Positions 2,828 through 37,507 of a DNA stretch of 64,000 nucleotides are shown one piece after another (positions within the stretch are counted from its first letter, which is position 1; each line of letters begins with the position of its first letter). The translations under genes were made by a program, and so were the position numbers. This DNA is from Gammaproteobacteria bacterium (GTDB taxonomy: Bacteria > Pseudomonadota > Gammaproteobacteria > UBA4575). The stretch spans positions 31,920-95,919 of the forward strand of contig CBDCTA010000026.1 of NCBI GenBank assembly GCA_965221955.1, written 5' to 3'. Below the pieces are notes generated by a model that was given only the letters and a program-made list of their open reading frames with translations, searched no databases and was not told the origin of the DNA.

Positions 2828-3277
2828 TTGAATGACGATCAAAAATGGATGCGTGAAGCATTAGTTCTAGCCGAACATGCGATGTCACGAGAAGAAGTGC
2901 CTGTGGGGGCAGTGGTTGTTCTTGAAAATAAAATTATTGGTAAAGGCTGGAACCAACCTATTGCGAGTAATGATCCTAGCGCGCATGCTGAAATTGTTGC
3001 CTTACGTGATGCAGGGGAAACTATTAAAAATTATCGATTACTAGACGCTGCGCTTTATGTAACCCTAGAACCTTGTTTAATGTGTGTGGGTGCGATGTTG
3101 CATGCACGTATTAAAAAATTAGTGTTTGGTGCGTTCGACCCCAAAACAGGTGCCGCGGGGTCAGTCTTTAATTTGTTCGAAGATTCTCGACATAACCATA
3201 GTGTTGATGTGCAAGGTGGTGTATTAGAGAAAGAAAGCGCAGAGTTGCTGCAAACGTTCTTTCAGCAACGAAGATAG
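2828..3277 (+). CDS. tadA: tRNA adenosine(34) deaminase
   Basis: EVPVGA, HAE and EPCxxC zinc motifs; guaA-tadA-mltF synteny. Confidence 0.96.
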   Translation: MNDDQKWMREALVLAEHAMSREEVPVGAVVVLENKIIGKGWNQPIASNDPSAHAEIVALRDAGETIKNYRLLDAALYVTLEPCLMCVGAMLHARIKKLVFGAFDPKTGAAGSVFNLFEDSRHNHSVDVQGGVLEKESAELLQTFFQQRR

Positions 3278-3281
3278 TGCA

Positions 3282-4679
3282 TTAGTTTTGAGCCAGCTTC
3301 TCATACAGTTCACCCTTGTTTTCTAGCCATACCAGCAAATCGAAGTAGTTGCGGATGTTCTGTACGTAGGTTACAGGTTCACGGCCGCGGGCGTAGCCAA
3401 AGCGAGTTTTTTCATACCATTTTTTGTTGCTGAGAAGTGGTAAGTACTTTCTTACATCCATCCATAGATCTGGGCTATCCCCAGCATTTTGAGTAAGAAT
3501 CCGCGCATCTTCTAAATGACCAAAGCCAACATTGTAGGCTGCGAGCGCCATCCAAGTACGATCGGGCTCCCTGATACGAGAAGGAATTTTTGCATGCATG
3601 GACAAAAAATATTCTGTGCCACCGAGTACGCTCTTATGGGGATCCACTCGATTTTCAATTTTAAGTAATTTTGCAGTATCGCGCGTTAACATCATCAAAC
3701 CTTTTACACCTGTAGGAGAAACAGCATTTGAGTTCCATAAGGATTCTTGATAACTCACAGCAGCAAGGAAGCGCCAGTCTTGATCAAACTCGATTGCTGC
3801 TTCTTTGAAAAGATTTTGATATTTAGGTAAACGTTCACGCACATGTTTTAGAAAAGTGTGACTATCAACAGGAGTGATGTCAGCAACGTGACCAAAATAC
3901 TTTTCTCTTAAATGTGTAAGTGTTCCATCTTCTTCTATTTGGCTAAAAAATTTATCAACTGCTTTTTGCAAAGAGTCGTCTTCAGATTTTTTTAATGCCC
4001 ACGCCAATGGTTGTTCAGGCCCGAGGCTAAACCCAATTCTTAGGCTAGGAAAATATCGACGCGTAACTGCAAGCTCGTTTGAGTCAGCAATGGTGTAGTC
4101 GATGAGGTTGTCAGAAGTTAATAACATCAACTCTTCGGAAGTTAAATCGGGATACTCTTTCCATGCTAAATTAGGGAAAAATTCTTTATGGTTTAAAAGC
4201 ATTTGTGCATGCGTGCTGCCTTGTACAACAGCTATTTTTTTGCCTTGCAAATCGTCAATAGATTTGGGCTTTTGTTGGCCTGATCTATAGGCAATCTGTG
4301 AGACAACTTTTGTATATTCTGGTCCAAAATCCACATAGGCTTCGCGTTGCTTTGTGTGGGTGATGCCCGCGGCACCGATATGTGCAGTACCATTTACAAC
4401 ACTAGGTAATATTTGGTGAAATTCATTTTGGACTTCGATGTTTAATTCAACCCCTAAATAATCTGCAAACAATTTTGAAAGTTCATACTCAAAACCTGTA
4501 GGGCCGTTTGGTCCAATATAATAAGTGGTCGGGCTATTGCGTGTGATTACATTTAATTTATTTGAACGTTTAATTTCATGCAATAAAGAAGAAGAATATT
4601 GTTGGTTTACAACAAATAGAATTACAAAAGCTGAAACAGCTAACAAAACTATTCCTAATTTTTGCATAGTAGATTTCAT
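3282..4679 (-). CDS. mltF: Membrane-bound lytic murein transglycosylase F
   Basis: N-terminal SBP-3 domain plus SLT domain (YQES, GLMMLT, AYNVG, GYARG). Confidence 0.95.
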   Translation of the reverse strand: MKSTMQKLGIVLLAVSAFVILFVVNQQYSSSLLHEIKRSNKLNVITRNSPTTYYIGPNGPTGFEYELSKLFADYLGVELNIEVQNEFHQILPSVVNGTAHIGAAGITHTKQREAYVDFGPEYTKVVSQIAYRSGQQKPKSIDDLQGKKIAVVQGSTHAQMLLNHKEFFPNLAWKEYPDLTSEELMLLTSDNLIDYTIADSNELAVTRRYFPSLRIGFSLGPEQPLAWALKKSEDDSLQKAVDKFFSQIEEDGTLTHLREKYFGHVADITPVDSHTFLKHVRERLPKYQNLFKEAAIEFDQDWRFLAAVSYQESLWNSNAVSPTGVKGLMMLTRDTAKLLKIENRVDPHKSVLGGTEYFLSMHAKIPSRIREPDRTWMALAAYNVGFGHLEDARILTQNAGDSPDLWMDVRKYLPLLSNKKWYEKTRFGYARGREPVTYVQNIRNYFDLLVWLENKGELYEKLAQN

Positions 4680-5435
4680 AAGTTCTAATTGCGGCGAGAA
4701 GTTATGTATTTAGACGTTAGTATCCAACCTGAGTTCAGGAAATATTCTATAAACGAATAAGGCAATGAACTGTGACATGCCTTGCAAGTGTGCCTTAATT
4801 AATAGAAAAACTGTAATGAAATTTTCTATTTCTCAATAAAAAAATAAACAAACTTACGCGTCTTTATTGATGATCAAAAAAAGCTTATTTATAGTAGTTA
4901 ATTAAACAATTACGCTAAGTAATTATTCTTTGGTAAATAATTTTAAATTACGAAATGCTCTTGAGAAAACTAAGGAATAGTCAGCGGCTTCAATAGATAT
5001 TTCTTAAATTATACAAATATCTATTTTTTGACAGATGTAGCACTTCAAATGAGGAGTAAAGAATTTTAGTGAGCCAGTTAATTGTTATTACATTATTTAA
5101 CGCAAACTATTTCTATTGTAAAAAATGTAAATATTTGTTATTCGCAATGAGTCTTGGTCTATTTAAAGCCTACATCTTTGTCTGAATTGCCATAGCGTGA
5201 AAATTTATCTCTAAAATTATATTTATTAATCATTAAGTTACAAATTTACATAAAAAATAACTGCTAAGCCTATGTTAAACACAAGTAAATTGTTGTAATT
5301 TCTTCCTATAACATTTAAAAATAAATGTATATTCATGCAGAATATTGCTAATAGTAATTATCTCGATAACCTTTCAAATATATAACTAGATAATCTCAAA
5401 AAAACTAAAATAAGCCTTACTAACTAGAGAGAGAA

Positions 5436-7343
5436 ATGGCTGCACATGGCGACGATAACAATACGGCATCTTTGATAGATAGAGTCTCTGAGCGGGACGA
5501 TGATTTTGAACGAGTATTGGGTGAAGTTATTGATTTGCCCGCATCACTCGATGCACAAAAAAATTTATCAGAAGAACCATACGAAATAGGTGACTTACTT
5601 GTTTCTTATTTAGAGCAGCTTGGCGTTGAGTTTGTGTTTGGTATTCCTGGTGGTGCAATTGAGCCTCTATACAATGCACTTGCTAGAAGTGAAAGAAGAG
5701 GTGGAGCGAAGTCTGTAGTAGCTCGGCATGAAACTGGTGCTGCATTTATGGCAGATGGTTATTCAAGAAATAGTGGTAACCTTGGGGTGTGTTGTGCAAC
5801 AGCAGGACCAGGTGCTACAAACTTGATAACTGGTGTTGCTTCTGCGTTCGATAATCATTCACCAATGTTGGTGATCACTGCACAAACCGCAATAGAAAAC
5901 TTTGGTCGCAACGCGGCACAAGAATCCGCGGATACAGGAATTAATACAGTAGCAATGTTTGAGCATTGTACTCATTACAGCACATTGGTTTCACATATTA
6001 ATCAGTTTGAACAAAAACTCGCATCTGCAATTATGACGGCCTACCGCTCTCCTATGGGGCCCGCACATTTAAGCATTCCGCTTGATGTGTTAAGGCATCC
6101 AAGCTCTGCGCAATATCCTTCATATGACCTTTCAAGCTTGTTGTGGCAGCCAAGTCCGATTGATATGGATAGCTTGAACATTTTTTGTGGAGAACTCTCG
6201 GCATCAAACAGTTTAGTTTTTATCGTTGGTGAAGGGTGTTCTCAAGGAATTGGTTCAATTTTAAATACTGCGTTGAAATTTAATGCCAAAATCGTAACCA
6301 CACCACATGCGAAAGGCTTGGTGAGTCCGTATCATCCTTTATTCCGCGGCGTATTAGGTTTTGCAGGTCATGCTAGTGCAATTGAGACGATAGATAGTGA
6401 AGTAGATACCATTGTTGCAATTGGTACCACATTAAGTGAAACAGCAAGTAATACTTGGGATCAAAAAGTATTAAATCAAAAGCTGATTCACATTGATTCT
6501 TCTGAAGATAACTTAATGCATTCCCCCATGGCACGGTTACATGTTAGGGGTGATATCGCAAAAATATTTGAACACGTCGAAACGAAATTTGATATTCAAA
6601 AACCTTCTAGCTCAAACGATCGTGTAAGTTACGTTTCTAAAGAATTTAAAAGAAAATCTAAAAAGAAAGAAAAAACTTTGAAACATCATTTCGAGATGAA
6701 TGATGTAGAGAAATGCAGTGATAATTCATCACCAATAAAGCCACAAAGGCTCATGCAGCTTTTGCCAAAAATATTTCCACCTGAAACTAAATACCTATGT
6801 GATTCAGGCAATAGTATGGCGTGGTCCATACATTATTTACATCCGTATGATCGAAGGTTAGCTGGATCTAGAGGTGAAAATGGTGGATTGTTTTGGACAT
6901 GTTTAGAATTTGGCTCCATGGGGTGGGCTATTGGCTCATCAATCGGTACGGCGCTTACAAACAGAAAACGGCCTGTTGCTTGTTTAACAGGTGATGGTGC
7001 TATGTTGATGTATGGTGGTGATGTAACCGTAGCGATACAAGAGAAATTACCTGTAGTGTTTATTGTTTTAAATGATTCCGAATACGGGATGGTTAAGCAC
7101 GGGCAAAGATTGGGTCATGCCGAAAGAGTGGGTTATAAACTTCCTGAAATTAACTTTGTTGAATTTGCGCATTCCATGGGAATGAACGCACGTCGAATTA
7201 ATACGGTTGTAGATTTGGAGAATCTTGACGTGAAAGAATTAATTTCCCACGGTCCTGCAATTTTGGAAGTCATGATTGATAAAGAAGAGGTACCACCAAT
7301 AGACAGTCGACTAAAGGCTTTAGGTACAATTAACGGTAACTAA
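5436..7343 (+). CDS. ThDP-dependent enzyme, acetolactate synthase-like (not ilvI/B context)
   Basis: FGIPGG, RHETGAAFMADG, GPGATN, GSMG and GDG...N ThDP motif; no ALS small subunit nearby. Confidence 0.9.
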   Translation: MAAHGDDNNTASLIDRVSERDDDFERVLGEVIDLPASLDAQKNLSEEPYEIGDLLVSYLEQLGVEFVFGIPGGAIEPLYNALARSERRGGAKSVVARHETGAAFMADGYSRNSGNLGVCCATAGPGATNLITGVASAFDNHSPMLVITAQTAIENFGRNAAQESADTGINTVAMFEHCTHYSTLVSHINQFEQKLASAIMTAYRSPMGPAHLSIPLDVLRHPSSAQYPSYDLSSLLWQPSPIDMDSLNIFCGELSASNSLVFIVGEGCSQGIGSILNTALKFNAKIVTTPHAKGLVSPYHPLFRGVLGFAGHASAIETIDSEVDTIVAIGTTLSETASNTWDQKVLNQKLIHIDSSEDNLMHSPMARLHVRGDIAKIFEHVETKFDIQKPSSSNDRVSYVSKEFKRKSKKKEKTLKHHFEMNDVEKCSDNSSPIKPQRLMQLLPKIFPPETKYLCDSGNSMAWSIHYLHPYDRRLAGSRGENGGLFWTCLEFGSMGWAIGSSIGTALTNRKRPVACLTGDGAMLMYGGDVTVAIQEKLPVVFIVLNDSEYGMVKHGQRLGHAERVGYKLPEINFVEFAHSMGMNARRINTVVDLENLDVKELISHGPAILEVMIDKEEVPPIDSRLKALGTINGN

Positions 7344-7454
7344 TTTAGTTTTAGTTATTTCAATTAGCCAATATTTCAATTGGCAAATAATAAAAACAAA
7401 AAATGTTTTGCAACTATGTTTTACAATATAGTGCTATGAAATCGAATAATAACC

Positions 7455-8267
7455 ATGTCAGCCGACAAAGATAAACAAGAAGTAATCCATACTAAAATCT
7501 GGAACGAAGAACCGGAGCCAGATAATCCTTTTGCAGCCAAAAAATGTTACTGCGCAGGGTACGATGTATATGGTGATCTTCTTGGTAAAGCTTCTTGGGC
7601 AGAATATTTATACTTATTATTTAAATTAAAAAAGCCTACACCTGAACAAGCAAAGTTACTCGAAACAATTGCTGTAGCAATTGCTAACCCTGGAATTCGT
7701 GACCATAGCGTTCGCGCAGCAATGAATGCGGGAGTAGGCGGGTCAACTGCTGCGTCTGCGTTGATGGCTGCGTTGGCTGTTGGTGCCGGACAGTACGGAG
7801 GCGCGCGAGAAGTTTATATATTGTTGAAGCTCTGGAAAGAATGTAGTTATGACTTAGCAAAATGGAAACACGCAATTTTTAATCCACCAAAATCAAATTC
7901 TCCAAGTGGCTGGCCTGATATTAATCACCCAATTGGATTTGATCCAAACTCAGATTGCTTCCCATTACCTTTTAAGCAAACTCTAAATGAATTGATAAGT
8001 ATTTCAAAGAGTAAATCCTTGGTTTGGTTGCTCAAGAATAAAAATGAATTGCAAGAAATTGCTGGTTGTCCATTGTCGTTAACAAGTGTAATTGCTGCGG
8101 CACTTTTCGATTTAGGATTTGATTGTGAACAAGGTGAGATGCTCTATTTGTTGCTTAGATTACCTGGTGCTGCTGTACACAGCATTGAACAAAAACATAT
8201 TGGTTGGCGAAATTTTCCATTTTATTTAAATGGTTTAGAGATATTAGATGACCCAGTTATTAAATAA
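7455..8267 (+). CDS. Citrate synthase / citryl-CoA lyase-fold protein, divergent
   Basis: GYDVYGDLLG start, GAGQYGGA, C-terminal LLRLPGAAVHSIEQ helix typical of the family. Confidence 0.75.
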   Translation: MSADKDKQEVIHTKIWNEEPEPDNPFAAKKCYCAGYDVYGDLLGKASWAEYLYLLFKLKKPTPEQAKLLETIAVAIANPGIRDHSVRAAMNAGVGGSTAASALMAALAVGAGQYGGAREVYILLKLWKECSYDLAKWKHAIFNPPKSNSPSGWPDINHPIGFDPNSDCFPLPFKQTLNELISISKSKSLVWLLKNKNELQEIAGCPLSLTSVIAAALFDLGFDCEQGEMLYLLLRLPGAAVHSIEQKHIGWRNFPFYLNGLEILDDPVIK

Positions 8268-8276
8268 GGAATAATA

Positions 8277-9092
8277 ATGGAAAGAAGTGATAAGTTTGGC
8301 CATAAAAGGTTGCTTGAGTTTGAAGATTTTTGTAAATCTAAGTTAGGAGGCTCTATTCCTGGTGAGCGTGCAGTGTTTCGAGGAAGGGATGTTTTTAATG
8401 AATTCAAACATTGGTCATGGTTAAAAATGCTTTATTTTTGCGTAATCGGGACTGAGCCAGCTGAAGAGACAGAAAAATTTTTAAATGGACTATATTGCAC
8501 TTGTTTTAATTTTTCTGACCCTCGTATTTGGAATAACCGAGTGGCTGCTTTAGCAGCAACTGCTTCAAGCACTGCACAACTAGGAGTTTGCGCCGCATCT
8601 GCTATATCTGAAGCTGAAATATATGGGGGTCCACCCGTATCGGAAGCATTAAGCTTTTTACTTGAAGCAAAGAAAAAATTTGATAGAGGGGAAACAATTA
8701 AGGACATTGTTGATATTGAGTTAAACTCAAATGGAGTTTTATATGGGTTTGGTAGACCGATTAATAAAAATGACGAGAGAATTATTCCAACTCTTAATCT
8801 GCTTAAAGAGCTTAACTTATACGATCGACCATATATTCAATTCGCATTAAAAATACAAAATGAATTGTTAAGCAGAAAAAATAAAACAGGGTTTAATATT
8901 GGTGGAGTTATGGCGGCTTTCTGCGCTGATGATGGGATGACTCCAAAACAATTGTATCAATTGATGGTTGTTTGTTTTTATGTGGGACAACTTGCTTGTT
9001 ATATAGAATCAGATAGCAAAATTGTTGGGTCGTTTTATCCTTTACGGTGCAATAAAATTTCATACTCAGGGCACAAAGGAAAAGTTTGGTAG
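8277..9092 (+). CDS. Second citrate synthase-fold protein, divergent
   Basis: AVFRGRD, DPRIWNNRVAALA, YGG and YGFGRP..DERI segments. Confidence 0.7.
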   Translation: MERSDKFGHKRLLEFEDFCKSKLGGSIPGERAVFRGRDVFNEFKHWSWLKMLYFCVIGTEPAEETEKFLNGLYCTCFNFSDPRIWNNRVAALAATASSTAQLGVCAASAISEAEIYGGPPVSEALSFLLEAKKKFDRGETIKDIVDIELNSNGVLYGFGRPINKNDERIIPTLNLLKELNLYDRPYIQFALKIQNELLSRKNKTGFNIGGVMAAFCADDGMTPKQLYQLMVVCFYVGQLACYIESDSKIVGSFYPLRCNKISYSGHKGKVW

Positions 9093-9124
9093 TTCTATTA
9101 AGCAAGTTTGGGTAATAAGTAAGT

Positions 9125-10150
9125 ATGAAGATTGAAAATGACAATTCCAAATTAAATCATATTGATGATAAAAAATTGTGGGATATTATTGCTGGTTTAT
9201 CTGGTTATCATGCCGTTATTATTGCGTATAGATTAGATATTTTCTCAATTCTAAATGATAAACCAATGAATATTGCTGATTTATCAAAAATGTTAGATAT
9301 AAAATTACGGCCCGCTGAAGCATTAGTAAATACAAATTTAAATTTGGGTTTGATTGAACTAAGTGACAATAAATTAAAGTTGTCTGATATCGGTAAAAAA
9401 TATCTTGTTAAGTCCAGCGATACCTATTTTGGACCTATGTTTGAGCTTGTTTCTAAAAATGAGCTAAGTTTTGAAAAAGTACATGATGCTGTTTTGTCAA
9501 ATAAACCTCAGGAATATGGTTCGGGCGATATATTTGAGTCACATGAAAAAAAATTTGAGCTGGCTAAAAAGTTTACTGAAGCGATGCATAGCTTGAGCGT
9601 AGCGCCGGCTTCGTCATGGGTAGAAAAAATAGACTTGGGTGAGAGTTCAATACTTTTAGATATTGGTGGTGGGTCTGGAGCCCATACAATTTCTGCGCTG
9701 AAAAGATGGCCAAATCTTGAAGGCATAGTGTTTGATATTGAACCAGTCTGTGAGGTTTGTGAATTAATGTTTAGTAAAAATAATTTAAATTCGCGTGCTT
9801 CTACATCTAGTGGTGATTTTTGGAATGATGGCTATCCTTTTTCTGATTTACATTTCTATTCGCAAATTTTTCATGATTGGCCAGAAGATAAATGCAAGTT
9901 TCTCGCAAAAAAGAGTTTTGATTCACTACCCAGTAAGGGAAAAATTATTATTCATGAAATGCTTTATGATGATGATAAGCATGGACCATTTGTGGCTGCC
10001 GCGTGTAGTGTTGCATTGTTATCATGGACCGAAGGAAAGCAATATTCTGGTCTAGAAATTAAGGAGTTTCTTGAAGAAGCAGGTTTTGCTGATATTGATA
10101 TAATTCCAACATTCGGTTATTGGAGTGTCATTGTCGGCACTAAACTTTAG
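9125..10150 (+). CDS. SAM-dependent O-methyltransferase (Methyltransf_2, with dimerisation domain)
   Basis: LDIGGGSG, GDFW and IFHDW motifs; N-terminal winged-helix-like region. Confidence 0.93.
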   Translation: MKIENDNSKLNHIDDKKLWDIIAGLSGYHAVIIAYRLDIFSILNDKPMNIADLSKMLDIKLRPAEALVNTNLNLGLIELSDNKLKLSDIGKKYLVKSSDTYFGPMFELVSKNELSFEKVHDAVLSNKPQEYGSGDIFESHEKKFELAKKFTEAMHSLSVAPASSWVEKIDLGESSILLDIGGGSGAHTISALKRWPNLEGIVFDIEPVCEVCELMFSKNNLNSRASTSSGDFWNDGYPFSDLHFYSQIFHDWPEDKCKFLAKKSFDSLPSKGKIIIHEMLYDDDKHGPFVAAACSVALLSWTEGKQYSGLEIKEFLEEAGFADIDIIPTFGYWSVIVGTKL

Positions 10151-10423
10151 CTAAAGTGCGCTTTAGTTTCTATAAATAAATATTAAATTTAGGTTGTTTC
10201 CATACATACTAATTTTTTATCCGTTTGTCATTGAAATCTTGTGATCCACGGTATCAATATTCCGATACGTGTTGTCTTTAATTCTCGCCTAACTCCTTAA
10301 AATAAGGTGCATTAATTTGTATTTTCGCTTGCCGAGCGAGACGAAGTCTCGCCCCTAGATTAAATAAAATTCTATTTGGGAAAGTGAAGGGAATAAAAAT
10401 GTACGACATCAAGGAGTGTCAGC

Positions 10424-12547
10424 ATGAAACATCTTACTTTTATAAATTACAATTTTTTATTAATTGTCACTTTATTATTTAGTGTAACGAATATTGCTTA
10501 CGCTGATTATGATGACGATGAAGAAGAAGCACTTATTGAGCTATATGGAGATGAAGAAACTATTAGTATAGCTACAGGTACAGCTCAACCGATATCACGT
10601 GCTCCAGCTGTGGCAACTGTTATAACAGCAAAAGATATTAAGGAAATGGGTGCTACAGATATTGATGAGGCGCTAGAGACAGTTCCAGGTCTGCACGTAT
10701 CAAGAAACTTCTTTGCAAATGGTCCAATTTATACTTTCCGTGGTATTTATGCTGTGAGTAATCCACAAGTCTTGATGTTAGTAAATGGAATATCTGTAAA
10801 TAATATTTGGCAAGGAGATAGAAGTCTTCTATGGGGAGGAATGCCTGTTGAAGCTATTTCGAGAATTGAAGTTATTCGAGGGCCTGGTTCTGCAGTCTAT
10901 GGTGCAGATGCATTTTCGGGTGTAATTAATATCATTACTAAAGAGGCTGCAGAAATTGATGGTTTTGAATTTGGTTCTAGAGTTGGAAGTTTTGATACAA
11001 AAGATATTTGGGCATTGTATGGAGATAAAGTCAGGGGATTTGATGTTGCATTTTCTCTCGAAGGTAGACAGACAGATGGGCATGATGAAGATATAGAATC
11101 TGATTTTCAGTCTTTCTTAGATGGTGTAACCGCAACAAATGCATCACTAGCTCCTGGATCTACGAATAATGAAAGGGATTGGATTGATGCTCGTTTAGAT
11201 ATTTCAAAGGGAAATTGGAAGTTTCGTGCTGGATTACAAAGTAGAGAGAATGTTGGTGCTGGTGTAGGTGCGGGGGAATCACTAGATACAAATTCAGAAT
11301 ACAGCAGCAAAAGATGGAACGCAGATTTAACTTACAATAATAATAACTGGATCGAAAATTTAGATTTAACGTCACAACTTAGCTTTTTTAATTCAAGTCA
11401 GGAAGTTGATAAAGACCAAGTTTTATTTCCACCTGGTGCAATTGTGCCTGGATTAGGTGGTCCATTCCCAGAAGGATTAATTGGTAATCCTGAGTTATGG
11501 GAAAGGCATATTCGATATTCTACCACAGCATTATTTAATGGTGTTCAAAATCATCAGATTAGAACAGGTATTGGTTATACACATAGTGAAATATATAAGG
11601 TAAAAGAAGAGAAAAATTTTGGATTAGACGGAAACGGTGTACCGATTCCAATCGGGAGTTCTCCAGTTGATGTTTCAGATACACCTGCAGTATTTTTGCC
11701 TGAAAAACACAGAAATAACAGTTTTATGTTTGTGCAAGATGTTTGGCAAATCAGTAATGATTGGGAGCTCACTGCTGGTTTACGCTATGACGACTACAAT
11801 GATTTTGGAGATACTTGGAATCCTCGTGCAGCACTTGTTTGGGCAGCAAGACATGATCTAACAGCAAAGCTGCTTTATGGTGAAGCGTTTCGTGCTCCTT
11901 CATTAGGTGAGTTTAGATTACAAAATAATCCAGTAACCCTTGGAAATGATGAATTAGACCCAGAAGAAATTAAAACGCTTGAGTTAGCATTTGATTATCG
12001 GCCAAAGGATAACTTAACACTTGGATTGAATTTATTTAAATACGAATGGGATGACATTATTCAATATGCACCTAACCCTAGTTTGCCTGTTGGCTCATTA
12101 CAAGCACAAAATATTGGCGAACAAGAAGGTTATGGGTTTGAATTTGAATTTGATTGGAAAGTATCTAGAACCTTGAATATTTTAGGCAACTTTGCCCATC
12201 AAGATTCTGAAGATCAGACGACAGATGAAGACTCTGGTAATGCCCCAGAAAATCAATTCTATGTACGAACAAACTGGGAGTTTGCTCCTGGTTGGAGTCT
12301 ATCACCACAATGGAATTTTGTAATGGAACGAAAGAGAGTTGATGGTGATATGCGAAGTAATATTGAAGACTATGATATGTTGGACCTTACTTTACGTCAT
12401 AAGTCTTTTAATGGTCGTTGGGAAGTTGCTCTTTCTGGGCGAAATGTTTTAAACAAGCGTGCATTTGAACCTGCTAGCACTAGTATTCCTGGTGACTTAC
12501 CTTTGGCACGAAGAAGCGTATGGGGGGAGTTGCGATTTAATTATTAA
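10424..12547 (+). CDS. TonB-dependent outer-membrane receptor
   Basis: Signal peptide, plug (RIEVIRGPGSAVYGADA), barrel motifs, C-terminal aromatic residue. Confidence 0.95.
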   Translation: MKHLTFINYNFLLIVTLLFSVTNIAYADYDDDEEEALIELYGDEETISIATGTAQPISRAPAVATVITAKDIKEMGATDIDEALETVPGLHVSRNFFANGPIYTFRGIYAVSNPQVLMLVNGISVNNIWQGDRSLLWGGMPVEAISRIEVIRGPGSAVYGADAFSGVINIITKEAAEIDGFEFGSRVGSFDTKDIWALYGDKVRGFDVAFSLEGRQTDGHDEDIESDFQSFLDGVTATNASLAPGSTNNERDWIDARLDISKGNWKFRAGLQSRENVGAGVGAGESLDTNSEYSSKRWNADLTYNNNNWIENLDLTSQLSFFNSSQEVDKDQVLFPPGAIVPGLGGPFPEGLIGNPELWERHIRYSTTALFNGVQNHQIRTGIGYTHSEIYKVKEEKNFGLDGNGVPIPIGSSPVDVSDTPAVFLPEKHRNNSFMFVQDVWQISNDWELTAGLRYDDYNDFGDTWNPRAALVWAARHDLTAKLLYGEAFRAPSLGEFRLQNNPVTLGNDELDPEEIKTLELAFDYRPKDNLTLGLNLFKYEWDDIIQYAPNPSLPVGSLQAQNIGEQEGYGFEFEFDWKVSRTLNILGNFAHQDSEDQTTDEDSGNAPENQFYVRTNWEFAPGWSLSPQWNFVMERKRVDGDMRSNIEDYDMLDLTLRHKSFNGRWEVALSGRNVLNKRAFEPASTSIPGDLPLARRSVWGELRFNY

Positions 12548-12589
12548 TCAAACTAAAAATTAAATTTGTTTTGATTAGTAGTTACAACA

Positions 12590-13558
12590 TTGCGTAACAC
12601 TCACTTTAATCGATACTTAGTGTCTCTATATGGCGTGAAAAATGCCGTATGGAGTTTTTTGCTATTTACGATATTAATTTCCTTTCCTAGTTTTGCGGCA
12701 ACTCCTTCCGTTGCGGTGATCTACCCAGAATTACGTGCACCTTACAACAAAATTTACGACGACATTGCAGAAGGTGTAGAAAAACATGCCAATGGTCAAA
12801 CGAAAAGATATAAGTTAACAAAAAACTATTCTCCACAAAAACTTAACGAATGGGTTGAAAGAAACAATATAAAAGTTGCTGTTGCACTTGGAAAAGGTGG
12901 CGAAAAAGCAATTGGGCAATTAACGCAAAACATTCCCGTTGTGTTAAGTGGCGTATTAAAACCTAAGTCACCTAATTATTATGGTATCTCTTTAGCAGCA
13001 TCACCCGATAAATTATTTAAAGAACTAAAAAAACAAAATTCGGAAATTAAACGAGTCATCGTTGTTTACAACCCTAAGAAAACCGAATGGCTTATTCGTC
13101 AGGCGAAAACTGATGCAATTAATAATAATTTAGAGCTCATTACCTTTACGACAATGAGTCTTTCAGAGTCTGCAAAAATTTATCGTGAAGTGTTTACGAG
13201 ATCTGACATCAATATATCAGCAATTTGGTTGCCCCCGGACAGGTATTCAGTAGATAACAAGGCAATCCTATCTTACATTCTTGAGCAGTCTTGGGCGAAA
13301 AATGTGGCAGTGTTTTCAAGCAGTCCAGCCCATGTAAACAAAGGTGTTTTATTTGCAATGTATCCTGACAACAAAAAACTGGGAGAAAGTTTGGGTGCGT
13401 ATGCATTGGATGAGCTTAATGGTGATTCAAAATTGGACAAGATGATTCCTGTTGAAGATCTAAAAATTGCATTTAATAGACGAACAGCAGAACACCTAGG
13501 CATTAAATTTAGAACTGATGATTTGCGTCGATATGATGCAGTTTTTCCAGCAGAGTAA
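12590..13558 (+). CDS. Periplasmic ABC_sub_bind / YfiR-like sensory protein (true start may be later)
   Basis: Signal peptide, AVALG, AIWL and N..TA..LG motifs; between receptor and sensor, with no permease or ATPase. Confidence 0.75.
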   Translation: MRNTHFNRYLVSLYGVKNAVWSFLLFTILISFPSFAATPSVAVIYPELRAPYNKIYDDIAEGVEKHANGQTKRYKLTKNYSPQKLNEWVERNNIKVAVALGKGGEKAIGQLTQNIPVVLSGVLKPKSPNYYGISLAASPDKLFKELKKQNSEIKRVIVVYNPKKTEWLIRQAKTDAINNNLELITFTTMSLSESAKIYREVFTRSDINISAIWLPPDRYSVDNKAILSYILEQSWAKNVAVFSSSPAHVNKGVLFAMYPDNKKLGESLGAYALDELNGDSKLDKMIPVEDLKIAFNRRTAEHLGIKFRTDDLRRYDAVFPAE

Positions 13559-13561
13559 GTA

Positions 13562-16500
13562 ATGATTCATCCAATTAAAATATTTAAGCAATTTTATACG
13601 AGTGGTTTTAAAGAGCAACTTGTTACTACTTTTTTGATTGGCATTTTCATTACTGCTGCGTTATCAACCTATTTAATTTCTTCATTTACTTCGAGCAAGG
13701 TTGAAGAAAAAGTTGAAAACGAAGGGTTTCAAATCACACGCGATTTTGCAGATAGAAACACTTTGGCATTACTATATTTTAGTGAAGAAAGTGCAAGAGA
13801 AAATGTAGAAGCAATTAAAAATTTCCCAGATGTTAAAGGTGTTGCGGTATACGATGCTCAGAAGAAACCATTAATTGAAGATGGTGAAAATACATTTTCA
13901 AAGGAGGGTGAAAACTGGCCAACGGAAATGAAATTAATTTCTGAAACGAAAGATGATTGGTATTTTGCATCACCTGTATATGCGCGAGGCACCGATCCTG
14001 TTATTGCGGAATCACCTTTCATTGATACTGATGAAGTAGAAGAGCGTGAGTTATTGGGTTATGTGCGTGTGCATATGAGCAAAGAAAGTCTGCATGCTCT
14101 CGAAAATACTATCCTAAAAATAACTATCATGATCACGTTAGTGTTGTCTGTGATTTTAGCTGTAGTGCTGTGGACAACAACGGACCGCGTTGTTAAACCA
14201 CTTAAACAATTGGCCGGATTTATGCGTGAAGCAGAAGAAGGGAATATGGGTATCCGCTCTGAGCTATGGGGCCCTAGAGATATTACTAAAATGCAGAATG
14301 CATTTAATACGATGATCAAAGCATTGGGAGATCGTGAGCATAATTTAGAAAGTGCACGCCAATCTGCGCTTCAATATGCGCATGCTAAAGGAGAGTTTGC
14401 AGCAAACGTAAGCCATGAGTTGCGTACTCCTTTAAATGGTATTATTGGCATGCTCGATATTCTTAAAGATACAGAATTAAGTGCTAAGCAAAAAGAATAT
14501 GTAAATGTTGCACAAGATTCAGGAGATGCGCTTCTTAGCTTGATTGATGATGTGCTCAATTTTTCTAGAATGGATTCTGGAAAGATTGAGATTGAACACG
14601 AGCAGTTTAATTTGCGTGAAATGTTGGATGACATTATTGGTATTTTAACGGGTCATGCGTCATCAAAAGATCTTGATCTCGCATACATCATTGATAAAAA
14701 CGTACCGAGCCATCTCAAAGGTGATGTGAGCCGTATTCGTCAGTTGTTAATCAACTTAGGTGGGAATGCTGTTAAGTTCACTGAAAAAGGTGAGATAGGA
14801 TTCCAAGTGAGTAAAGCTGCGGTGCAAAGTCGTCATTTAGTTTTGAGATTCGAAGTACGTGATACTGGAGTTGGGATTACTGAAGATGCACAAAATAAGA
14901 TTTTTGAAGCATTTCAACAAGCTGATGCGTCTACAACCAAGAAATTTGGTGGCACAGGGTTAGGGCTGGCAATTTGTAAACAATTAGTTGAATCCATGCG
15001 CGGGGAAATTGGAGTTGAAAGTGAAGCTGGTAAAGGTAGTACTTTCTGGTTTGAAATTCCATTTAAAGAAATGCCATCAACTGTAAACACATTAGACGTG
15101 AGGCACTCCACAGCTTCGGGATTGCGTATTTTTATAGTTGATGACAGTGAAATGGTGCGTGAGAATTTACAACAAACTTTTGAAGGATGGGGTGCTTTTG
15201 TTGGTAGTGCAAAGAGTGGTAATGAAGCAGTAGAGCTTTTGCGTTCCGCAAGTGAGCGTAAAAGGCCATTTGATGTCGCTTTTATAGACGAATTAATGGG
15301 TGATTCGAATGGTATTGAGTTGATTCGTTCTATTACGAAAGATGCAAGTATTGCACCGATGAAATTAGTGTTAATGACAAATCAAATTAATCCAGAGGCA
15401 TTTATAGACCGTTTTAGAGAGATTGATGCTTATGTTAAAAAACCATTGCGTCAGTCAAACGTATTCAATTGCATCGCTGATTTAATCAATATGCCTGTGG
15501 TGCAACATACAGATAAAAATGACATTGCTCCAGGTGCAACAGATATACCTAATTTCAATGCTACTTTATTAATTGTTGAAGATAATCGTGCTAACCAACA
15601 AGTCGCACAAGCTATGTTCGAAAGGCTTGGTTGTAAATGTTCGATCGCAAGTAATGGAATTGAAGCATTAAAGTTATTAGAACAAGCGGAATACGATGCG
15701 GTATTTATGGATTGCAATATGCCTGAGATGGATGGCTATGAAACTACAAACAAAATAAGGCAACTACCGAGTGAAATTTCGCAGATTCCAATTATTGCAA
15801 TGACGGCAAACGTGCTTAAAGGTGATCGTGAAAAATGTATCCAGTCAGGTATGAACGATTACACAAAGAAACCATTGAAGCTTGAAAAACTGATTGAAAA
15901 ACTCAGCCGTTGGGTTGGTGAAGGGTCTATTGAGAAATATACAGAAGAAGAGAGCTCGTTGATTACTTTGATAGAAGATTCTGCATTAGTAGACACTGCA
16001 GAGCATCATGCCATTGATAGAGATACGGTAGATATATTGAAAGAAAACGTTGGTGATGGTTTCAATGACATGGTCCAAGTTTATATTGATGACATGGAGA
16101 TTCTGCTTCGTTCGCTTGAAAAGAGTGTGCAAGAAAAAGACCCAAGTTCATTGCGGCATTATGCGCATAGTATAAAAGGCAGTAGTTCAAACTTCGGTGC
16201 GAGTAGATTAGTGCATCTTGCGAAGCAGCTTGAGGCAATTGGTAAAAATGATTCTGTAGAGGGTGCACATGATTTAGTTCAAGCAATATTCCCTCAGGCT
16301 GCATTTGTTATTAGTGAATTAAGGAAAGAAATTAATTTAACAAAAGAAGACACCCTGTTAATGCAAAAGAGCACAGAGAAGATTCTTATTGCAGATGACG
16401 ACCGAAGTATGCGCGTGGCTTTACAAAATGTTTTGGCGACAGATGGTTACGAAATTGAATCAGTTGCGGATGGTATAGAGGCTGTTAAACGCTGTGAGCA

Positions 16501-18082
16501 AGATATGCCAGGATTAATTTTATTGGATGCCATGATGCCTAATTTAAATGGTTTCGATGCATGTAAAAAAATACGCATGTTAAGGGGTGGTAAACATGTA
16601 CCTATTCTAATTGTTACTGCATTAGAAGATGATAGTTCTATCGAAGAAGCATTTGATTCGGGCGCAACAGACTTTATCTCAAAGCCTGTTCATTTTGCTG
16701 TAATGCGACAACGCGTTTCACGCTTATTGAAGGCGAGTCGTGCTGAAGTGCATGTGCGTGAGTTGGCCTATAACGACTCCCTTACTGGGTTGCCAAATCG
16801 AACCATGTTTATTGACCAGATGAATAAACTGATTAAGAAAGTACGCCCGCAAGCCCATATGTTGGCTGTGTTGTTTTTAGATTTGGATCGCTTTAAATAT
16901 GTAAACGACTCATTGGGTCACAGCGTTGGGGATATGTTATTAAAACAAGTTGCTGAAAGAATACTAAGTTGTGTGCGTTCGGCAGATACTGTGGCAAGGT
17001 TGGGTGGAGATGAGTTCACCTTGGCATTAGATGGCATAGAAGATAAAAGTGTAGTCGCAAATATAGCGGATAAGATTTGTCGTCGAGTAGGGGAACCTTA
17101 TTCATTTGCAGGCAAAGAAATATATGTCTCAGCGAGTATTGGTATTTCATTGCACCCTGATGATGGGACCAATATTGGTGAATTGATGAAGCGCGCTGAT
17201 ACCGCAATGTTCAAAGCTAAAGAGCGCGGCGGGAGTTTCTTATTCTATGAGCCCGAAATGGAAGCGGTAGTAACCAACAAAGTAGAAATTGAACAAGACT
17301 TGCGTCACTCATTAGACCGAGAAGAGCTGGATGTTTTCTATCAACCTAAGTTAAATTTACAAACCTCTAAGGTCGAGGGTCTAGAAGCTCTAGTTAGATG
17401 GAATCATCCTGAAAAAGGGCAAGTTGGACCAAATGATTTTATTCCATTAGCAGAAGAGACGGGGCTGATATCTGAAGTGGGATTATGGGTGTTAATTAGT
17501 TCGTGTGTGCAAATGCAATCTTGGATTGATAAAGGTTATGACCCTATGCCTGTGTCGGTAAACCTATCTGGCAGACAACTTGAAAATGGCGATATTGCTG
17601 CGCAAGTTGCACACGTATTAGCAGAGTCAGGCTTAAAGCCCGAATATTTAGAGTTAGAAATAACTGAAAGCATCATTATGAAACGCCCTGAAGAAGTGAT
17701 TTCAATTCTGCATCAATTAAAAGCGATGGGCGTAAAACTTTCGATTGATGATTTTGGTACAGGGTATTCGTCACTAAATTATTTGCGCAAATTCCCGATT
17801 GATTTGCTTAAGATTGATAAAGCCTTTATACGCGATGTTGCTACGAACAAAGAAGATCGTTTAATCGTTAAGGGAATTATTGCTTTAGCCAAGAGTTTAA
17901 ATCTCGAGGTTTTAGCAGAGGGAGTTGAAACAATTGAGCAACAAACCTTCCTCAGAGACGAAGGCTGTGACTATATTCAGGGCTACTATATTGGTAAACC
18001 GATGAAGAGCAGCGATTTTGAACAAGAGTTTATTCTTTCTAACCGCAGCAACATTGAATTGATCTCAAATTATCGCAAGTAA
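13562..18082 (+). CDS. Hybrid sensor: TM-HAMP-HisKA-HATPase-REC-REC-HPt-REC-GGDEF-EAL
   Basis: [18 protein letters not shown], three REC domains, AHSIKG (HPt), RLGGDEF, EAL, DDFGTG. Confidence 0.95.
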
Positions 18083-18591: not shown

Positions 18592-20469
18592 ATGGATACA
18601 TTTCCTAGTCTTTTCTTACAACAAACCAGAACAAGATCTAACGATCTAGCGATTCGATATAAACATCATGGATTATGGAAATCGTGGACATGGAGTGATG
18701 TAAACACCAATGTTACTGAGCTTGCATGTGGTCTTGCATCTAAAGGATTAAAGCCAAACGAAAATGTTGCCATCATAGGTAACAACATCCCACAACTTTA
18801 TTTCGCAATGATCGCGGTGCAGTGTTTAGGTGCAGTACCTGTTCCTATTCATCCAGATTCAAATACACAAGAACTTGTTACTTTTTTAAATAACTGTGAA
18901 GCGAAGTTTGCAATCGTTCAAGATCAGCAGCAAGTAGATGCGCTTTACGATGTGATAGATAGGTGTGAAAACTTAGAAGAGATTATATACAACGATGGTC
19001 GTGGCATGACGGAATATGACCATTCACACTTAAGTAGTTTTGAAGAAATGCAGGAAATGGGTAAAAAGTTTGCTCAAGAACATGTCAGTTTTTTTGAAGA
19101 TGTCACATCAAAAGTTACACAAGATTCCGACGCTTTCATACTTTACACAGCAGGCACATCGGGAACTGCACGCGGAGCTGTGCATACGCATGGTAGTTTA
19201 GTTAATACGGGTATGGCGTTTGCTAGCCAAGAGAAGATTAAACAAGATGAACAAGTGTTAGCATTTTTGCCTCTCTCTTATGCGGCAAATACATTATTTA
19301 CCTATACGCTTTGGTTGTTGAAAGGGTTCACTATCAATTGCCCTGAAAGTAACGAAACTATTATGAATGATCTTCGTGAAATAGGTCCGACATTAATTTA
19401 CGCACCACCACATTTTTACAAACAGCTTCATGCAGAAATCACATGGAGAGGGCAAAGGTCTTCGACATATTGGTTTGATAAATGGTTCAGGATTGCTACT
19501 AAAAATAGACAAAAGTTTTTAAACGGAGAAAACTTGTCCCTAGTTGATAAGATTAAATGGGGCATGGGACAGCTTTTAATGTATCAGCCATTAAAAAATG
19601 TTTTTGGTTTAAGCAAACTTCGAAAAGCATATGTTGGCGGAGATATGCTGAATAGTGAAGTATTTAATTTTTTACGTTCTATAGGCGTTCATATTAAAAA
19701 AACATATGGGACAACAGAAAGTGCAGGCTTCATTAGTATTCAAGGGTGGGAGCAGTTAAATACTCCTGCGGGCGAGTATATTTTGGGTAAACCTTTGTCT
19801 GGAATTGATGTTAAGAAACTAGATAATGGTGAAATAGTTTTTAGAGGAATTAATGCATTTAAAGAATATTGCAATGATCCTGAGGCTACAGCAGCAGTAA
19901 AGGATTCTGATGGTTGGGTTAGAACAGGTGATGCTGGAGATATTGATAGTATAGGTGCAATTAGAATAACAGATCGAGTAGATGCAATTGGCAAGTTTAG
20001 CAATGGTGAAAGTTTTGCCCCACATCTTGTAGAAAATGCATTGAAGTCTTCTCCTTATATTCAAGAAGCTGTTGCGGTTGGAGAAGGGCATGATGCTATT
20101 GTGGCATTTATAGTAATTGATGGGGTTACAGTTGGTAGTTGGGCAGAAGTAAATAATGTTCGCTTTGCTGGATATAAAGATTTAGCAACACAGAAAGAAG
20201 TTTATGACTTAGTAAAGAAAACAGTCGAAGATGTAAATGCTCATATGGGTCAAATTGAAGGTGAGCATTGTCCACGAATTTCTCGATTTGTATTAATGCA
20301 TAGAGAATTCTTGGTAGATCAAGGTGAGATTACAAGATCACGTAAAATTAAACGCGATGTGGTAATGGGAACGCATCAAGCATTAGTAAATGCCATGTAT
20401 TCAGCGCAACAGAAAGTTGAAATTTCAGAGGCAGGTCAAACTGCAGAGTTAAGAATTGAATCTACCTAA
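18592..20469 (+). CDS. Long-chain acyl-CoA synthetase (AMP-binding)
   Basis: YTAGTSG, YGTTE and RTGD motifs. Confidence 0.88.
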   Translation: MDTFPSLFLQQTRTRSNDLAIRYKHHGLWKSWTWSDVNTNVTELACGLASKGLKPNENVAIIGNNIPQLYFAMIAVQCLGAVPVPIHPDSNTQELVTFLNNCEAKFAIVQDQQQVDALYDVIDRCENLEEIIYNDGRGMTEYDHSHLSSFEEMQEMGKKFAQEHVSFFEDVTSKVTQDSDAFILYTAGTSGTARGAVHTHGSLVNTGMAFASQEKIKQDEQVLAFLPLSYAANTLFTYTLWLLKGFTINCPESNETIMNDLREIGPTLIYAPPHFYKQLHAEITWRGQRSSTYWFDKWFRIATKNRQKFLNGENLSLVDKIKWGMGQLLMYQPLKNVFGLSKLRKAYVGGDMLNSEVFNFLRSIGVHIKKTYGTTESAGFISIQGWEQLNTPAGEYILGKPLSGIDVKKLDNGEIVFRGINAFKEYCNDPEATAAVKDSDGWVRTGDAGDIDSIGAIRITDRVDAIGKFSNGESFAPHLVENALKSSPYIQEAVAVGEGHDAIVAFIVIDGVTVGSWAEVNNVRFAGYKDLATQKEVYDLVKKTVEDVNAHMGQIEGEHCPRISRFVLMHREFLVDQGEITRSRKIKRDVVMGTHQALVNAMYSAQQKVEISEAGQTAELRIEST

Positions 20470-20514
20470 GTTAAATAAGATTAAAAAGTAAAAACATATA
20501 GCTGGAAGTTATAA

Positions 20515-21306
20515 GTGAGTAGTATAGCAAACGGAAAAGAACCACATATGGTGATCGAGAATATCGATCTAGCATTTGGTGGTACAAAAGCAATTACTGA
20601 TATCAGTTTCACTGTTTATAAAGGTGAAATTTGTGCCGTAATAGGACCTAATGGTGCAGGTAAAAGCTCTATGTTGAATGTAATTAATGGTGTTTATATT
20701 CCGCAACAAGGTTCCATTACCTATGAAGGTAAAAAATTCAACAAGATGAAACCACACTCTGCTGCGGTAATGGGTATCGGCCGTACTTTCCAAAATATTG
20801 CGTTGTTCTCAGGAATGTCTGTTGTTGAAAATATCATGACAGGTCGAAATCTGATGATGAAATCAACTTGGATTGAAAATGCACTAGGTATTGGTCGTAG
20901 TAAAAGAGAAGAGCTAGAGCATAGAGAGGCTTGTGAAGAAATTATTGAGTTCTTGGGTTTGCAATCCATTCGCAAAACTCAAGTTTCTGCATTGTCATAT
21001 GGATTGCAAAAACGTGTAGAACTTGGTCGTGCCTTAGCTGCTGAGCCAAATATGTTGTTGCTTGATGAGCCGATTGCTGGGATGAACATTGATGAAAAGC
21101 TAGATATGGCATGTTTTATCCAGGAAATAAATCGAAATAAAGGCACTACTATCGTGCTTATTGAACATGATATGGGTGTAGTAATGGATATCTCAGATCA
21201 TGTTGTTGTAATGGACTATGGTGAAAAAATTGGTGATGGCACACCTGAAGAAGTTAAAAATAATCAAAAAGTAATTGATGCATACTTAGGTGTCAGTCAT
21301 GACTAA
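20515..21306 (+). CDS. ABC ATPase, LivG-like
   Basis: GPNGAGKS, RTFQN, LSYG, LLLDEP, AYLG. Confidence 0.93.
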   Translation: MSSIANGKEPHMVIENIDLAFGGTKAITDISFTVYKGEICAVIGPNGAGKSSMLNVINGVYIPQQGSITYEGKKFNKMKPHSAAVMGIGRTFQNIALFSGMSVVENIMTGRNLMMKSTWIENALGIGRSKREELEHREACEEIIEFLGLQSIRKTQVSALSYGLQKRVELGRALAAEPNMLLLDEPIAGMNIDEKLDMACFIQEINRNKGTTIVLIEHDMGVVMDISDHVVVMDYGEKIGDGTPEEVKNNQKVIDAYLGVSHD

Positions 21307-21344
21307 TCGACAACTTAAGTGTATAGCTTAGTAGGAGCGCAAGA

Positions 21345-22322: not shown

Positions 22323-22370
22323 CAAATAAATAAAGAATAATTAAATAAAGAATTTTAGTAGAGAAAATTA

Positions 22371-23483: not shown

Positions 23484-23614
23484 TAAACGGGTAAGGATAA
23501 GAATAAAAAGTTTTTTTGTATTTGTTTTCTAATTCGTTTTTAAATAAATATGAAAATGTAAGTAGCTTGCGCAAGCTATTTTTTAACTAAGAAACTCTCT
23601 TTGGAGGAGTACAC

Positions 23615-24964: not shown

Positions 24965-24998
24965 GATTTAAATATAAGTTTTAAATCATTTATTTCTT

Positions 24999-25035
24999 CG
25001 CAGCCGGTCAGCCTAAATTAGTTGACCGGCTGTTT
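24999..25035 (+). terminator. Stem-loop after the binding-protein gene (terminator or mRNA stabiliser)
   Basis: CAGCCGGTCAGC-loop-GTTGACCGGCTG. Confidence 0.65.
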
Positions 25036-25138
25036 GAAGAAAATAGATAGTTAAAAAAGGAGTGAATTCTGATTTGTTAAAGCGATTTAATAACTAATAA
25101 ATCAGAGTTTTCTTGAAAAAGATTTAAGGGAAATAGTT

Positions 25139-37416: not shown

Positions 37417-37507
37417 GGAGAGATGCCGGAGTGGTCGAACGGGCTCGCCTGGAAAGTGAGTGTGTCCTAATAGGGCACCGAGGGTTCGAATCCCTCTCTC
37501 TCCGCCA
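37417..37507 (+). tRNA. tRNA-Ser(GGA), integration hotspot
   Basis: GGAGAGA/TCTCTCC acceptor stem, anticodon loop CT-GGA-AA (37451-37453), long variable arm, GGTTCGAATCC, encoded CCA. Confidence 0.97.

Follow-up and report, generated by a model that had tools for sequence, protein, structure and literature searches.

A gammaproteobacterial gene module that links a thiamine-diphosphate enzyme and two citrate-synthase-like proteins to a TonB receptor, a periplasmic binding protein and a cyclic di-GMP hybrid kinase

Genes and proteins of the locus

The stretch of DNA analysed here (the window; 64,000 nucleotides of contig CBDCTA010000026.1 from the Gammaproteobacteria bacterium assembly GCA_965221955.1) carries seven co-oriented open reading frames (ORFs) on the plus strand at 5436–18082. 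They encode, in order, a thiamine diphosphate (ThDP)-dependent carboligase-like enzyme, two citrate-synthase-like proteins (CSL1 and CSL2), a class-2 S-adenosylmethionine (SAM) methyltransferase, a TonB-dependent outer-membrane receptor, a periplasmic binding protein (the binder) and a membrane hybrid sensor kinase with GGDEF and EAL domains; the gaps between the ORFs measure 111, 9, 32, 273, 42 and 3 nt. The locus is best explained as one functional unit with a six-gene core, consisting of the ThDP enzyme, CSL1, CSL2, the receptor, the binder and the kinase. Seven co-oriented genes had been described in the original prediction and the ORF listing of the window bears this out to the nucleotide. 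Its domain assignments hold under the Pfam and NCBIfam model searches from which the domain content given below is taken and, as it also stated, no ABC permease or ATPase accompanies the binder inside the seven-gene unit. The source genome (2.69 Mb, 29 contigs) carries a single copy of CSL1.

The ThDP enzyme (5436–7343, 635 residues) contains all three expected Pfam domains, TPP_enzyme_N, TPP_enzyme_M and TPP_enzyme_C (PF02776, PF00205 and PF02775), and the cofactor motif GDGAMLM...VLNDSEYG can be read in its sequence. It scores under every curated cut-off, with 260 bits against 538 for TIGR00118 and 256 against 1000 for the ScyA-related NF035927. The closest solved structures are BbmA (PDB: 8x3x, 3e-77) and CsmA (PDB: 8x3z, 2e-75), which rank ahead of the acetolactate synthases (ALS); relative to BbmA, CsmA and the ScyA family, the window's enzyme bears an N-terminal extension of 50 residues. 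Its gene is neighboured by the CSL genes and not by a regulatory small subunit gene of the ilvN/ilvH type. Sequence features place the enzyme in the ALS/ScyA superfamily, where by its scores it is a member of neither the ALS nor the ScyA family.

CSL1 (7455–8267, 270 residues) and its paralogue CSL2 (8277–9092, 271 residues) are predicted to have the citryl-CoA-lyase fold. Their matches to citryl-CoA-lyase and citrate-synthase models are weak, 60 and 47 bits, respectively, against cut-offs of 193–261 (212 for NF004869, the model to which these scores refer); the Pfam citrate synthase family PF00285 is matched by CSL1 with 18 bits against a cut-off of 27, and CSL2 has no Pfam hit. When solved structures are searched by sequence, both proteins match the citryl-CoA lyase 6hxp only (CSL1, 6e-11; CSL2, 2.6e-4, over residues 29–221). 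The monomer model of CSL1 is of moderate quality, with a predicted local distance difference test (pLDDT) value of 64.5 and low values in residues 1–46, 80–112 and 237–270. Foldseek places 6hxp first for this model (8e-6), followed by the citryl-CoA lyase (CCL) modules of ATP-citrate lyase and by citrate synthases, and the model thus suggests a citrate-synthase-like, all-helical fold for CSL1.

In the alignment with 6hxp, the HGGA motif is replaced by QYGGA and the NVD motif by SLT in CSL1, the region of the second histidine lying outside the alignment; in CSL2, HGG becomes YGG (IYGGP), GYGH becomes GFGR (GFGRP) and NVD becomes NIG. The His of HGGA, the His of GYGH and the Asp of NVD are what we take to be the catalytic residues of citrate synthase and citryl-CoA lyase, and at these positions CSL1 has Tyr and Thr, CSL2 Tyr, Arg and Gly. 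By its defining features, neither protein is a member of the citrate-synthase/CCL family. The two citrate-synthase-like proteins of the original prediction thus have the size of a citryl-CoA lyase without its catalytic residues; the count of four biosynthetic genes is overstated, the CSL pair having lost the His/His/Asp set. Each family is strongly conserved in itself (81 CSL1 and 72 CSL2 sequences aligned), among others in the stretches LRLPGAA.H..EQ of CSL1 and G.GRP....DER of CSL2, and the conserved segments align with citrate-synthase segments that presumably hold the arginines binding the substrate carboxylates. The CSL1 family comprises 3457 proteins at E ≤ 0.001.

The methyltransferase (9125–10150, 341 residues) matches PF00891 (Methyltransf_2) at 7.6e-34, and its solved relatives are 5i2h, RedM, the DsyB/MTHB methyltransferase and ASMT. 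The 273-nt gap (10151–10423) separates the enzyme genes from the receptor gene and contains, at 10336–10352, a GC-rich hairpin of 7 bp with the loop GAA and no T-run. A terminator scan reported no site in this gap; an internal promoter or a processing site there is possible.

The receptor (10424–12547, 707 residues) has a signal peptide, a Plug domain at residues 58–167 and a TonB β-barrel at residues 280–675, with no N-terminal signalling extension. It remains under all NCBIfam cut-offs, and the nearest solved structures are CirA, PirA, BtuB and PfeA, matched mainly over the plug. The binder (12590–13558) is a type I periplasmic binding protein of family PF04392 (ABC_sub_bind, 6.4e-13) whose signal peptide was read from the sequence. 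Its AlphaFold2 model is confident (pLDDT 90.9); Foldseek returns 3lkv, 3lft (an L-Trp complex) and 6hni/6hnj first, and ribose-binding and LacI-type folds, LsrB and LuxP further down. The ligands given for PF04392 structures in Table 1 of PMC10443332 are L-Trp, L-Tyr and L-Phe. The start codon of the binder is uncertain, since the ORF begins with TTG at 12590 and a signal peptide of more usual form would follow from a GTG at 12635; the uncertain start region (12590–12654) also contains a reported terminator-like hairpin (12624–12654).

The kinase (13562–18082, 1506 residues) is built in the order periplasmic sCache_4-like domain, HAMP, HisKA, HATPase_c, receivers, histidine phosphotransfer (Hpt) domain, receiver, GGDEF and EAL, with three receiver stretches in all and the whole phosphorelay ahead of GGDEF-EAL. 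Two hydrophobic segments, read from the sequence, surround the periplasmic domain of ~140 residues. NCBIfam matches are partial and below cut-off [BarA, TorS (470 against 676), LuxQ (343 against 1200) and DibA]. The H-box HELRTP, the GGDEF motif with RSAD five residues upstream and the EAL motif are all present. Judged by these motifs, both cyclic di-GMP (c-di-GMP) domains look competent, and the sensor with c-di-GMP output that had been proposed for this gene finds its GGDEF and EAL motifs intact.

Upstream of the ThDP gene, an AT-rich intergenic region of 756 nt (4680–5435) extends to a divergent mltF-like gene (3282–4679, minus strand). The GC fraction is 0.286 in 4501–5500, compared with ~0.36–0.41 within the module genes. 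An alignment of six genus relatives reveals conserved non-coding blocks at ~4765–4850, 4885–4935 and 5225–5335, which could be operator or promoter elements; the AT-rich region probably holds both promoter and operator. One conserved upstream block reads TTGCAAGTGTGC and another, ~110 nt long, lies 100–210 nt 5′ of the start codon. An Rfam scan of 4600–5500 gave no family at threshold, the sole match (RT-6, E 0.47) being at chance level. Promoter-like sites were fewer than in shuffled sequences, which makes the promoter scan uninformative, and the k-mers shared by the upstream regions are only A/T-rich words and a few 9-mers, found in 11–12 of 69 loci and probably derived from related genomes.

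Recurrence and variation of the module

Among 61 genomes (60 relatives and the window's own), CSL1 occurs in 20, all within the family, and the gene order ThDP–CSL1–CSL2–receptor–binder–kinase is kept in each of the 12 family loci that were fetched. A wider scan with a CSL1 alignment, at one genome per species, matched 317 stretches, 233 of which encode a relative. The best 80 loci, some of them from the same genomes as the 12 family loci, were analysed; they include Porticoccus, Cycloclasticus, Methylococcaceae, Collimonas, Hahella, Colwellia, Fluviicoccus, Thiogranum and Parabeggiatoa. Evaluable loci, with at least 2.5 kb to the left and at least 9.5 kb to the right of CSL1, number 46 of the 80. 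The ThDP gene, both CSL genes and the receptor gene are present in all 46, the binder in 42, the sensor part of the kinase in 44 and the GGDEF-EAL part in 37. A periplasmic partner together with a sensor kinase is found in 44 and the complete six-gene core in 35. L033 ends too early to include the GGDEF-EAL part, and in L098 none was matched in reach; L051, L077 and L081, where the kinase is short, have a separate GGDEF-EAL gene 5′ of the ThDP gene. Recurring in 12/12 family relatives and in many other gammaproteobacterial lineages, the arrangement is far beyond chance.

Four hundred genomes, sampled evenly from the class, were also searched for both genes. At E ≤ 1e-10, the binder was found in 52, CSL1 in 41 and both in 38, tallies that include two unpublished genomes (G075, with both genes, and G177, with the binder only). 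Binder and CSL1 lie at most 15 kb apart on one contig in 29 of the 38; in one further genome (G389) the binder is accompanied by a fragment of CSL1, and the other eight have the two genes split over contigs of fragmented assemblies. Linkage extends to a CSL1 class of greater distance (~30% identity): L112 and L116–L122 hold the same six genes in other orders, typically ThDP–receptor–CSL1–CSL2 with binder and kinase on the opposite strand. Because the linkage survives permutation and strand inversion, it argues for shared function and not inherited synteny. A lack of linkage between the biosynthetic and sensing halves in other genomes had been named beforehand as grounds for giving up the original prediction; the test was run and the halves are linked.

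The enzyme genes also occur as natural fusions. Seven protein clusters (858–901 residues) contain the three ThDP domains followed by CSL1; for one of these fusions (P0122), identity with the window's proteins amounts to 47% for the ThDP enzyme (over 594 residues) and to 55% for CSL1. A further fusion of 549 residues (P0128) joins CSL1 (46% identity) to CSL2 (34%). Most of the fusion clusters have a single member, and assembly error is possible for each one, yet eight different sequences agree. Because such fusions exist, ThDP enzyme, CSL1 and CSL2 would seem to work as one assembly.

The sensing half can be exchanged for a non-homologous one. In the Hahella loci L073 and L080 and in L115 (genome G377), a DUF4154 protein resembling YfiR/HmsC and a CHASE8 sensor take the place of binder and kinase. 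The DUF4154 protein is accompanied either by two proteins, a CHASE8-HAMP kinase and one of REC-GGDEF-EAL architecture, or by a single CHASE8-HAMP-PAS-GGDEF-EAL protein. A YfiR-like DUF4154 gene also lies beside receptor–ThDP–CSL1–CSL2 in genome G195 (L113). A profile search did not find the binder in G195 or in G213, the latter having a locus interrupted by an IS66 element. A periplasmic partner, a membrane sensor and, mostly, a c-di-GMP output are thus retained through non-homologous replacement. The original prediction had invoked YfiR and YfiN as models. This analogy is literally realised in L073, L080 and L115; it does not apply to the window itself, where the binder belongs to the type I binding proteins of PF04392 and is not YfiR-like. 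No natural binder–kinase fusion was found among the longer proteins, which is weak evidence. An apparent fusion of 1839 residues in L110 was rejected, since the binder and kinase matches, which share 4 nt, are in different frames and the ORF contains no PF04392 domain according to Pfam.

The methyltransferase is present in 8/12 family loci, in 7/80 of the wider set and in 5/46 evaluable loci. In L016, L018, L029 and L061 it sits between receptor and binder, and outside the window's family it occurs in two Methylococcales loci (L030 and L061, 52% identity). It is a lineage-specific accessory tailoring gene outside the conserved core, and the methylated product that had been put at the centre of the proposed circuit does not survive as a core feature. 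When ORFs without an assignment, within the 80 loci and at their flanks, were clustered, a single family emerged that recurs inside the unit, a short-chain dehydrogenase/reductase (SDR) found in eight loci of four lineages. It occurs in L033, in the flank of L041, between ThDP and CSL1 in Collimonas (L064, L074 and L099), after CSL2 in Hahella (L073 and L080) and in Thiogranum (L098), with a partial copy in L114. L098 also has a carbamoyltransferase gene between receptor and binder. At the place of the CSL pair, L107 (G228; 8482–12331) carries a β-ketoacyl synthase III (KAS III, FabH-like) and an SDR gene between the receptor and a ThDP gene of 40% identity, with binder, kinase and GGDEF-EAL gene alongside; this variant is a single locus. 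The variable tailoring genes within the unit speak for biosynthesis rather than catabolism, and ketone reduction and hydroxyl capping by methyl or carbamoyl groups are what would be expected on an acyloin-type scaffold.

The remaining inserts in the loci are mobile or foreign elements. GIY-YIG or IS200-like ORFs occur between ThDP and CSL1 in L076, L078, L088 and L093 (~9200–9800), and in L114 (10723–12456) CSL2 is truncated by an IS66 transposase. L082 (10850–13498) has a PoNi immunity gene between CSL2 and receptor. Genes that may or may not belong to the module are found in Hahella L073, with a UbiA-type prenyltransferase gene upstream of the ThDP gene (6699–7640), and in L115, with a UbiE-like methyltransferase and a globin-PAS chemoreceptor beside the variant module (15492–16367 and 4003–6657).

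In the window, the module is flanked at 2828–4679 by genes for a tadA-like deaminase and the divergent MltF-like protein (SBP_bac_3 and SLT lytic transglycosylase domains), and it keeps its place beside mltF and tadA in 12/12 family relatives. Downstream, 18592–25945 encodes a FadD-like acyl-CoA ligase (18592–20469) and then, 2.4 kb beyond the kinase gene, a complete Liv-type ABC transporter (20515–25945) in the order ATPase, two BPD_transp_2 permeases, Peripla_BP_6 binder, second ATPase; this cluster lies 3′ of the module in family relatives only. The ABC system was considered as a transporter for the PF04392 binder and rejected, having its own Peripla_BP_6 binder and being linked only within the family. 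At gathering score, Rfam matches nothing in the window but a single tRNA gene (37417–37504).

A possible signalling circuit and its alternatives

The interpretation that we prefer, and whose chances we put at about even, is that the unit makes a lineage-decorated small molecule which is re-imported and sensed in the periplasm and thereby controls c-di-GMP. A cytoplasmic ThDP carboligase, complexed with CSL1 and CSL2, would join units derived from 2-oxo acids into a scaffold of the acyloin or α-hydroxy-β-keto-acid type. The CSL pair, its citrate-synthase chemistry lost but the carboxylate-binding arginines kept, would bind this product or process it further. In the window's genome the hydroxyl would be capped by methylation, and in other lineages the scaffold would be reduced or carbamoylated. 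The molecule would leave the cell, cross the outer membrane again through the TonB-dependent receptor and be bound by the periplasmic PF04392 protein. Docking of the loaded binder on the kinase would then start an intramolecular His-Asp-His-Asp relay that switches GGDEF-EAL and changes the c-di-GMP level. What the sequences themselves show is that the genes are linked and in places fused, which domains they encode, that catalytic residues have been lost, and that tailoring genes vary and sensors can be swapped. The chemistry, the export and re-uptake, the contact between binder and kinase and the signal role of the molecule are steps that we infer, and the label of an autoinducer circuit, taken from the original prediction, is to be read in the same sense.

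Several observations weigh against this interpretation. The unit encodes neither an export route nor a transcription factor, and uptake through TonB-dependent receptors is the usual route of nutrients and metal chelators and not of the known autoinducers. CSL1 and CSL2 are devoid of the citrate-synthase His/His/Asp residues and may be non-catalytic, and catabolic ThDP enzymes (2-hydroxyacyl-CoA lyase, benzaldehyde lyase and glyoxylate carboligase) appear lower in the match list of the ThDP enzyme. Two of the 46 evaluable loci (L066 and L087) have the enzymes and the receptor with no sensor within 10 kb, and in L076, L078, L088, L093 and L102 the hybrid kinase has no GGDEF-EAL in reach. Many of the loci come from related genomes, so that the counts overstate their independence.

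An unlikely alternative is that the product is a metallophore or another scavenging molecule, secreted and taken up loaded, with binder and kinase only reporting its return. The receptor does travel with the enzymes in all 46 evaluable loci, even where no binder or kinase is in reach (L066 and L087, and likewise L113), and the solved structures nearest to it belong to receptors for siderophores and B12. Arginines aligned with those of citrate synthase that presumably bind carboxylates are kept in both CSL proteins, and two-component systems report ligand return for some siderophore receptors. A Fur-box scan upstream of the ThDP, receptor, binder, CSL1 and kinase genes, however, gave no sign of iron regulation, with no enrichment over shuffled sequences, the best mismatch values being 7.4 against 7.5 in shuffles for the ThDP gene (70 loci) and 7.5 against 7.65 for the receptor gene (59 loci). 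The window's unit also contains no inner-membrane importer, reductase, exporter, non-ribosomal peptide synthetase (NRPS) or NRPS-independent siderophore (NIS) synthetase, and no importer or NRPS/NIS synthetase recurs inside the 80 loci. The output is c-di-GMP and not transcription of uptake genes, and methylation or carbamoylation of hydroxyls would be expected to remove metal ligands.

The enzymes might instead act on a compound from outside, one that is imported and sensed and, after uptake through an unlinked transporter, cleaved by the cytoplasmic ThDP/CSL complex; we consider this improbable. The ThDP superfamily includes lyases, no exporter is encoded, and the two ends of the proposed pathway can occur apart, as receptor and enzymes do in L113. 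At the other end, five genomes of 98–100% completeness (G324, G327, G337, G358 and G110) hold binder and kinase, three of them with a receptor nearby; CSL1 is absent from all five by single-sequence search and by a profile search, the latter run without an internal positive control. Receiver-only genomes form a pattern typical of signals or goods that are shared, and eavesdropping on such a molecule would account for them. The sensing of an exogenous compound accounts for them equally well, which counts as a further point against a self-made signal. On the other hand, the unit has no conserved inner-membrane importer, its accessory genes (O-methyltransferase, carbamoyltransferase and the KAS III condensing enzyme) are of biosynthetic type, and the nearest relatives of the ThDP enzyme are carboligases.

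That the enzyme trio serves internal metabolism while receptor, binder and kinase sense an unrelated ligand, the two being neighbours through co-regulation or shared history, is very improbable: the 273-nt gap at 10151–10423 could hold a separate promoter, and the tie between enzymes and binder ligand in the self-made-signal interpretation is a presumed one, but the linkage survives order permutation, strand inversion and non-homologous sensor replacement, and in L016, L018, L029, L061 and L098 a gene for an accessory enzyme separates the receptor gene from the binder gene.

The self-made-signal interpretation can be extended to a more daring proposal, which we offer tentatively and with the chances against it. 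The module would then define a new family of diffusible signals, in which a ThDP carboligase and a rewired heterodimer of the citrate-synthase fold make acyloin-type molecules. Methylation, reduction or carbamoylation, depending on the lineage, would give these molecules 'dialects'; dedicated TonB receptors would capture them at trace levels, and binder and kinase would read them in the periplasm and set c-di-GMP. Biofilms would then be controlled by a form of quorum or kin sensing that is widespread in environmental Gammaproteobacteria and has its receiver-only eavesdroppers.

Were the self-made-signal interpretation correct, the module would represent a widespread route of cell–cell or cell–environment signalling, unusual among autoinducer systems for its ThDP and pseudo-citrate-synthase chemistry, its TonB-gated uptake and its c-di-GMP output through an in-cis phosphorelay. 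It would give a function to the CSL1 family (~3,500 members, now annotated 'citryl-CoA lyase') and its CSL2 partner, with a citrate-synthase fold recruited to new chemistry, and would define a ligand–receptor pair through which marine bacteria associated with hydrocarbons and methane control c-di-GMP. Cultured carriers exist, namely Porticoccus litoralis DSM 25064 with the full six-gene form, Collimonas species with the SDR and Hahella species with the YfiR-like form, which makes the interpretation directly testable. A literature search for combinations of the module's parts, with subscription-only literature outside its scope, returned no paper describing the module, which is widespread and apparently undescribed.

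Comparison with known systems

In its logic the module appears closest to ScrABC of Vibrio parahaemolyticus. According to PMC10269520, the scrABC operon encodes the signal-making enzyme ScrA, the periplasmic protein ScrB, which binds the S-signal, and the membrane GGDEF-EAL enzyme ScrC, whose activity is switched by loaded ScrB. As far as that description goes, both systems combine in one operon a gene for an enzyme with genes for a periplasmic binder that lacks a transporter and for a GGDEF-EAL protein of the membrane. Compared by description, the module differs in having a ThDP enzyme and two CSL proteins in the place of ScrA, a TonB receptor, and a histidine-kinase phosphorelay between the sensor domain and GGDEF-EAL.

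A transporter-less type I periplasmic binding protein adjoining a hybrid kinase is also the arrangement of LuxPQ and TorTS, and the binder model matches the LuxP–LuxQ complex (PDB: 1zhh) at E 7.8e-8 and LsrB (PDB: 1tjy) in Foldseek. The binder of the module, however, belongs to PF04392 and not to the LuxP or TorT family, and the output is c-di-GMP. Control of a membrane c-di-GMP enzyme by a periplasmic accessory protein is shared with YfiBNR and HmsCDE, and proteins of this kind (DUF4154 and CHASE8) occupy the place of binder and kinase in L073, L080 and L115. The window, in contrast, has the PF04392 binder and the sCache_4-like sensor, with no YfiB-like lipoprotein seen, and by its defining features the module is not a member of the YfiBNR family. 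We know of no YfiBNR or HmsCDE system with linked enzymes or a TonB receptor. With siderophore clusters the module has only the TonB receptor in common.

On the enzyme side, the three-domain ThDP protein resembles the ScyA family, BbmA and CsmA and differs from them by its CSL partner or fusion. In fold and size the CSL proteins correspond to 6hxp, the Hydrogenobacter thermophilus citryl-CoA lyase, and to the CCL module found in ATP-citrate lyase; the replaced catalytic residues and the presence of two distinct paralogues instead of a homo-oligomer set them apart.

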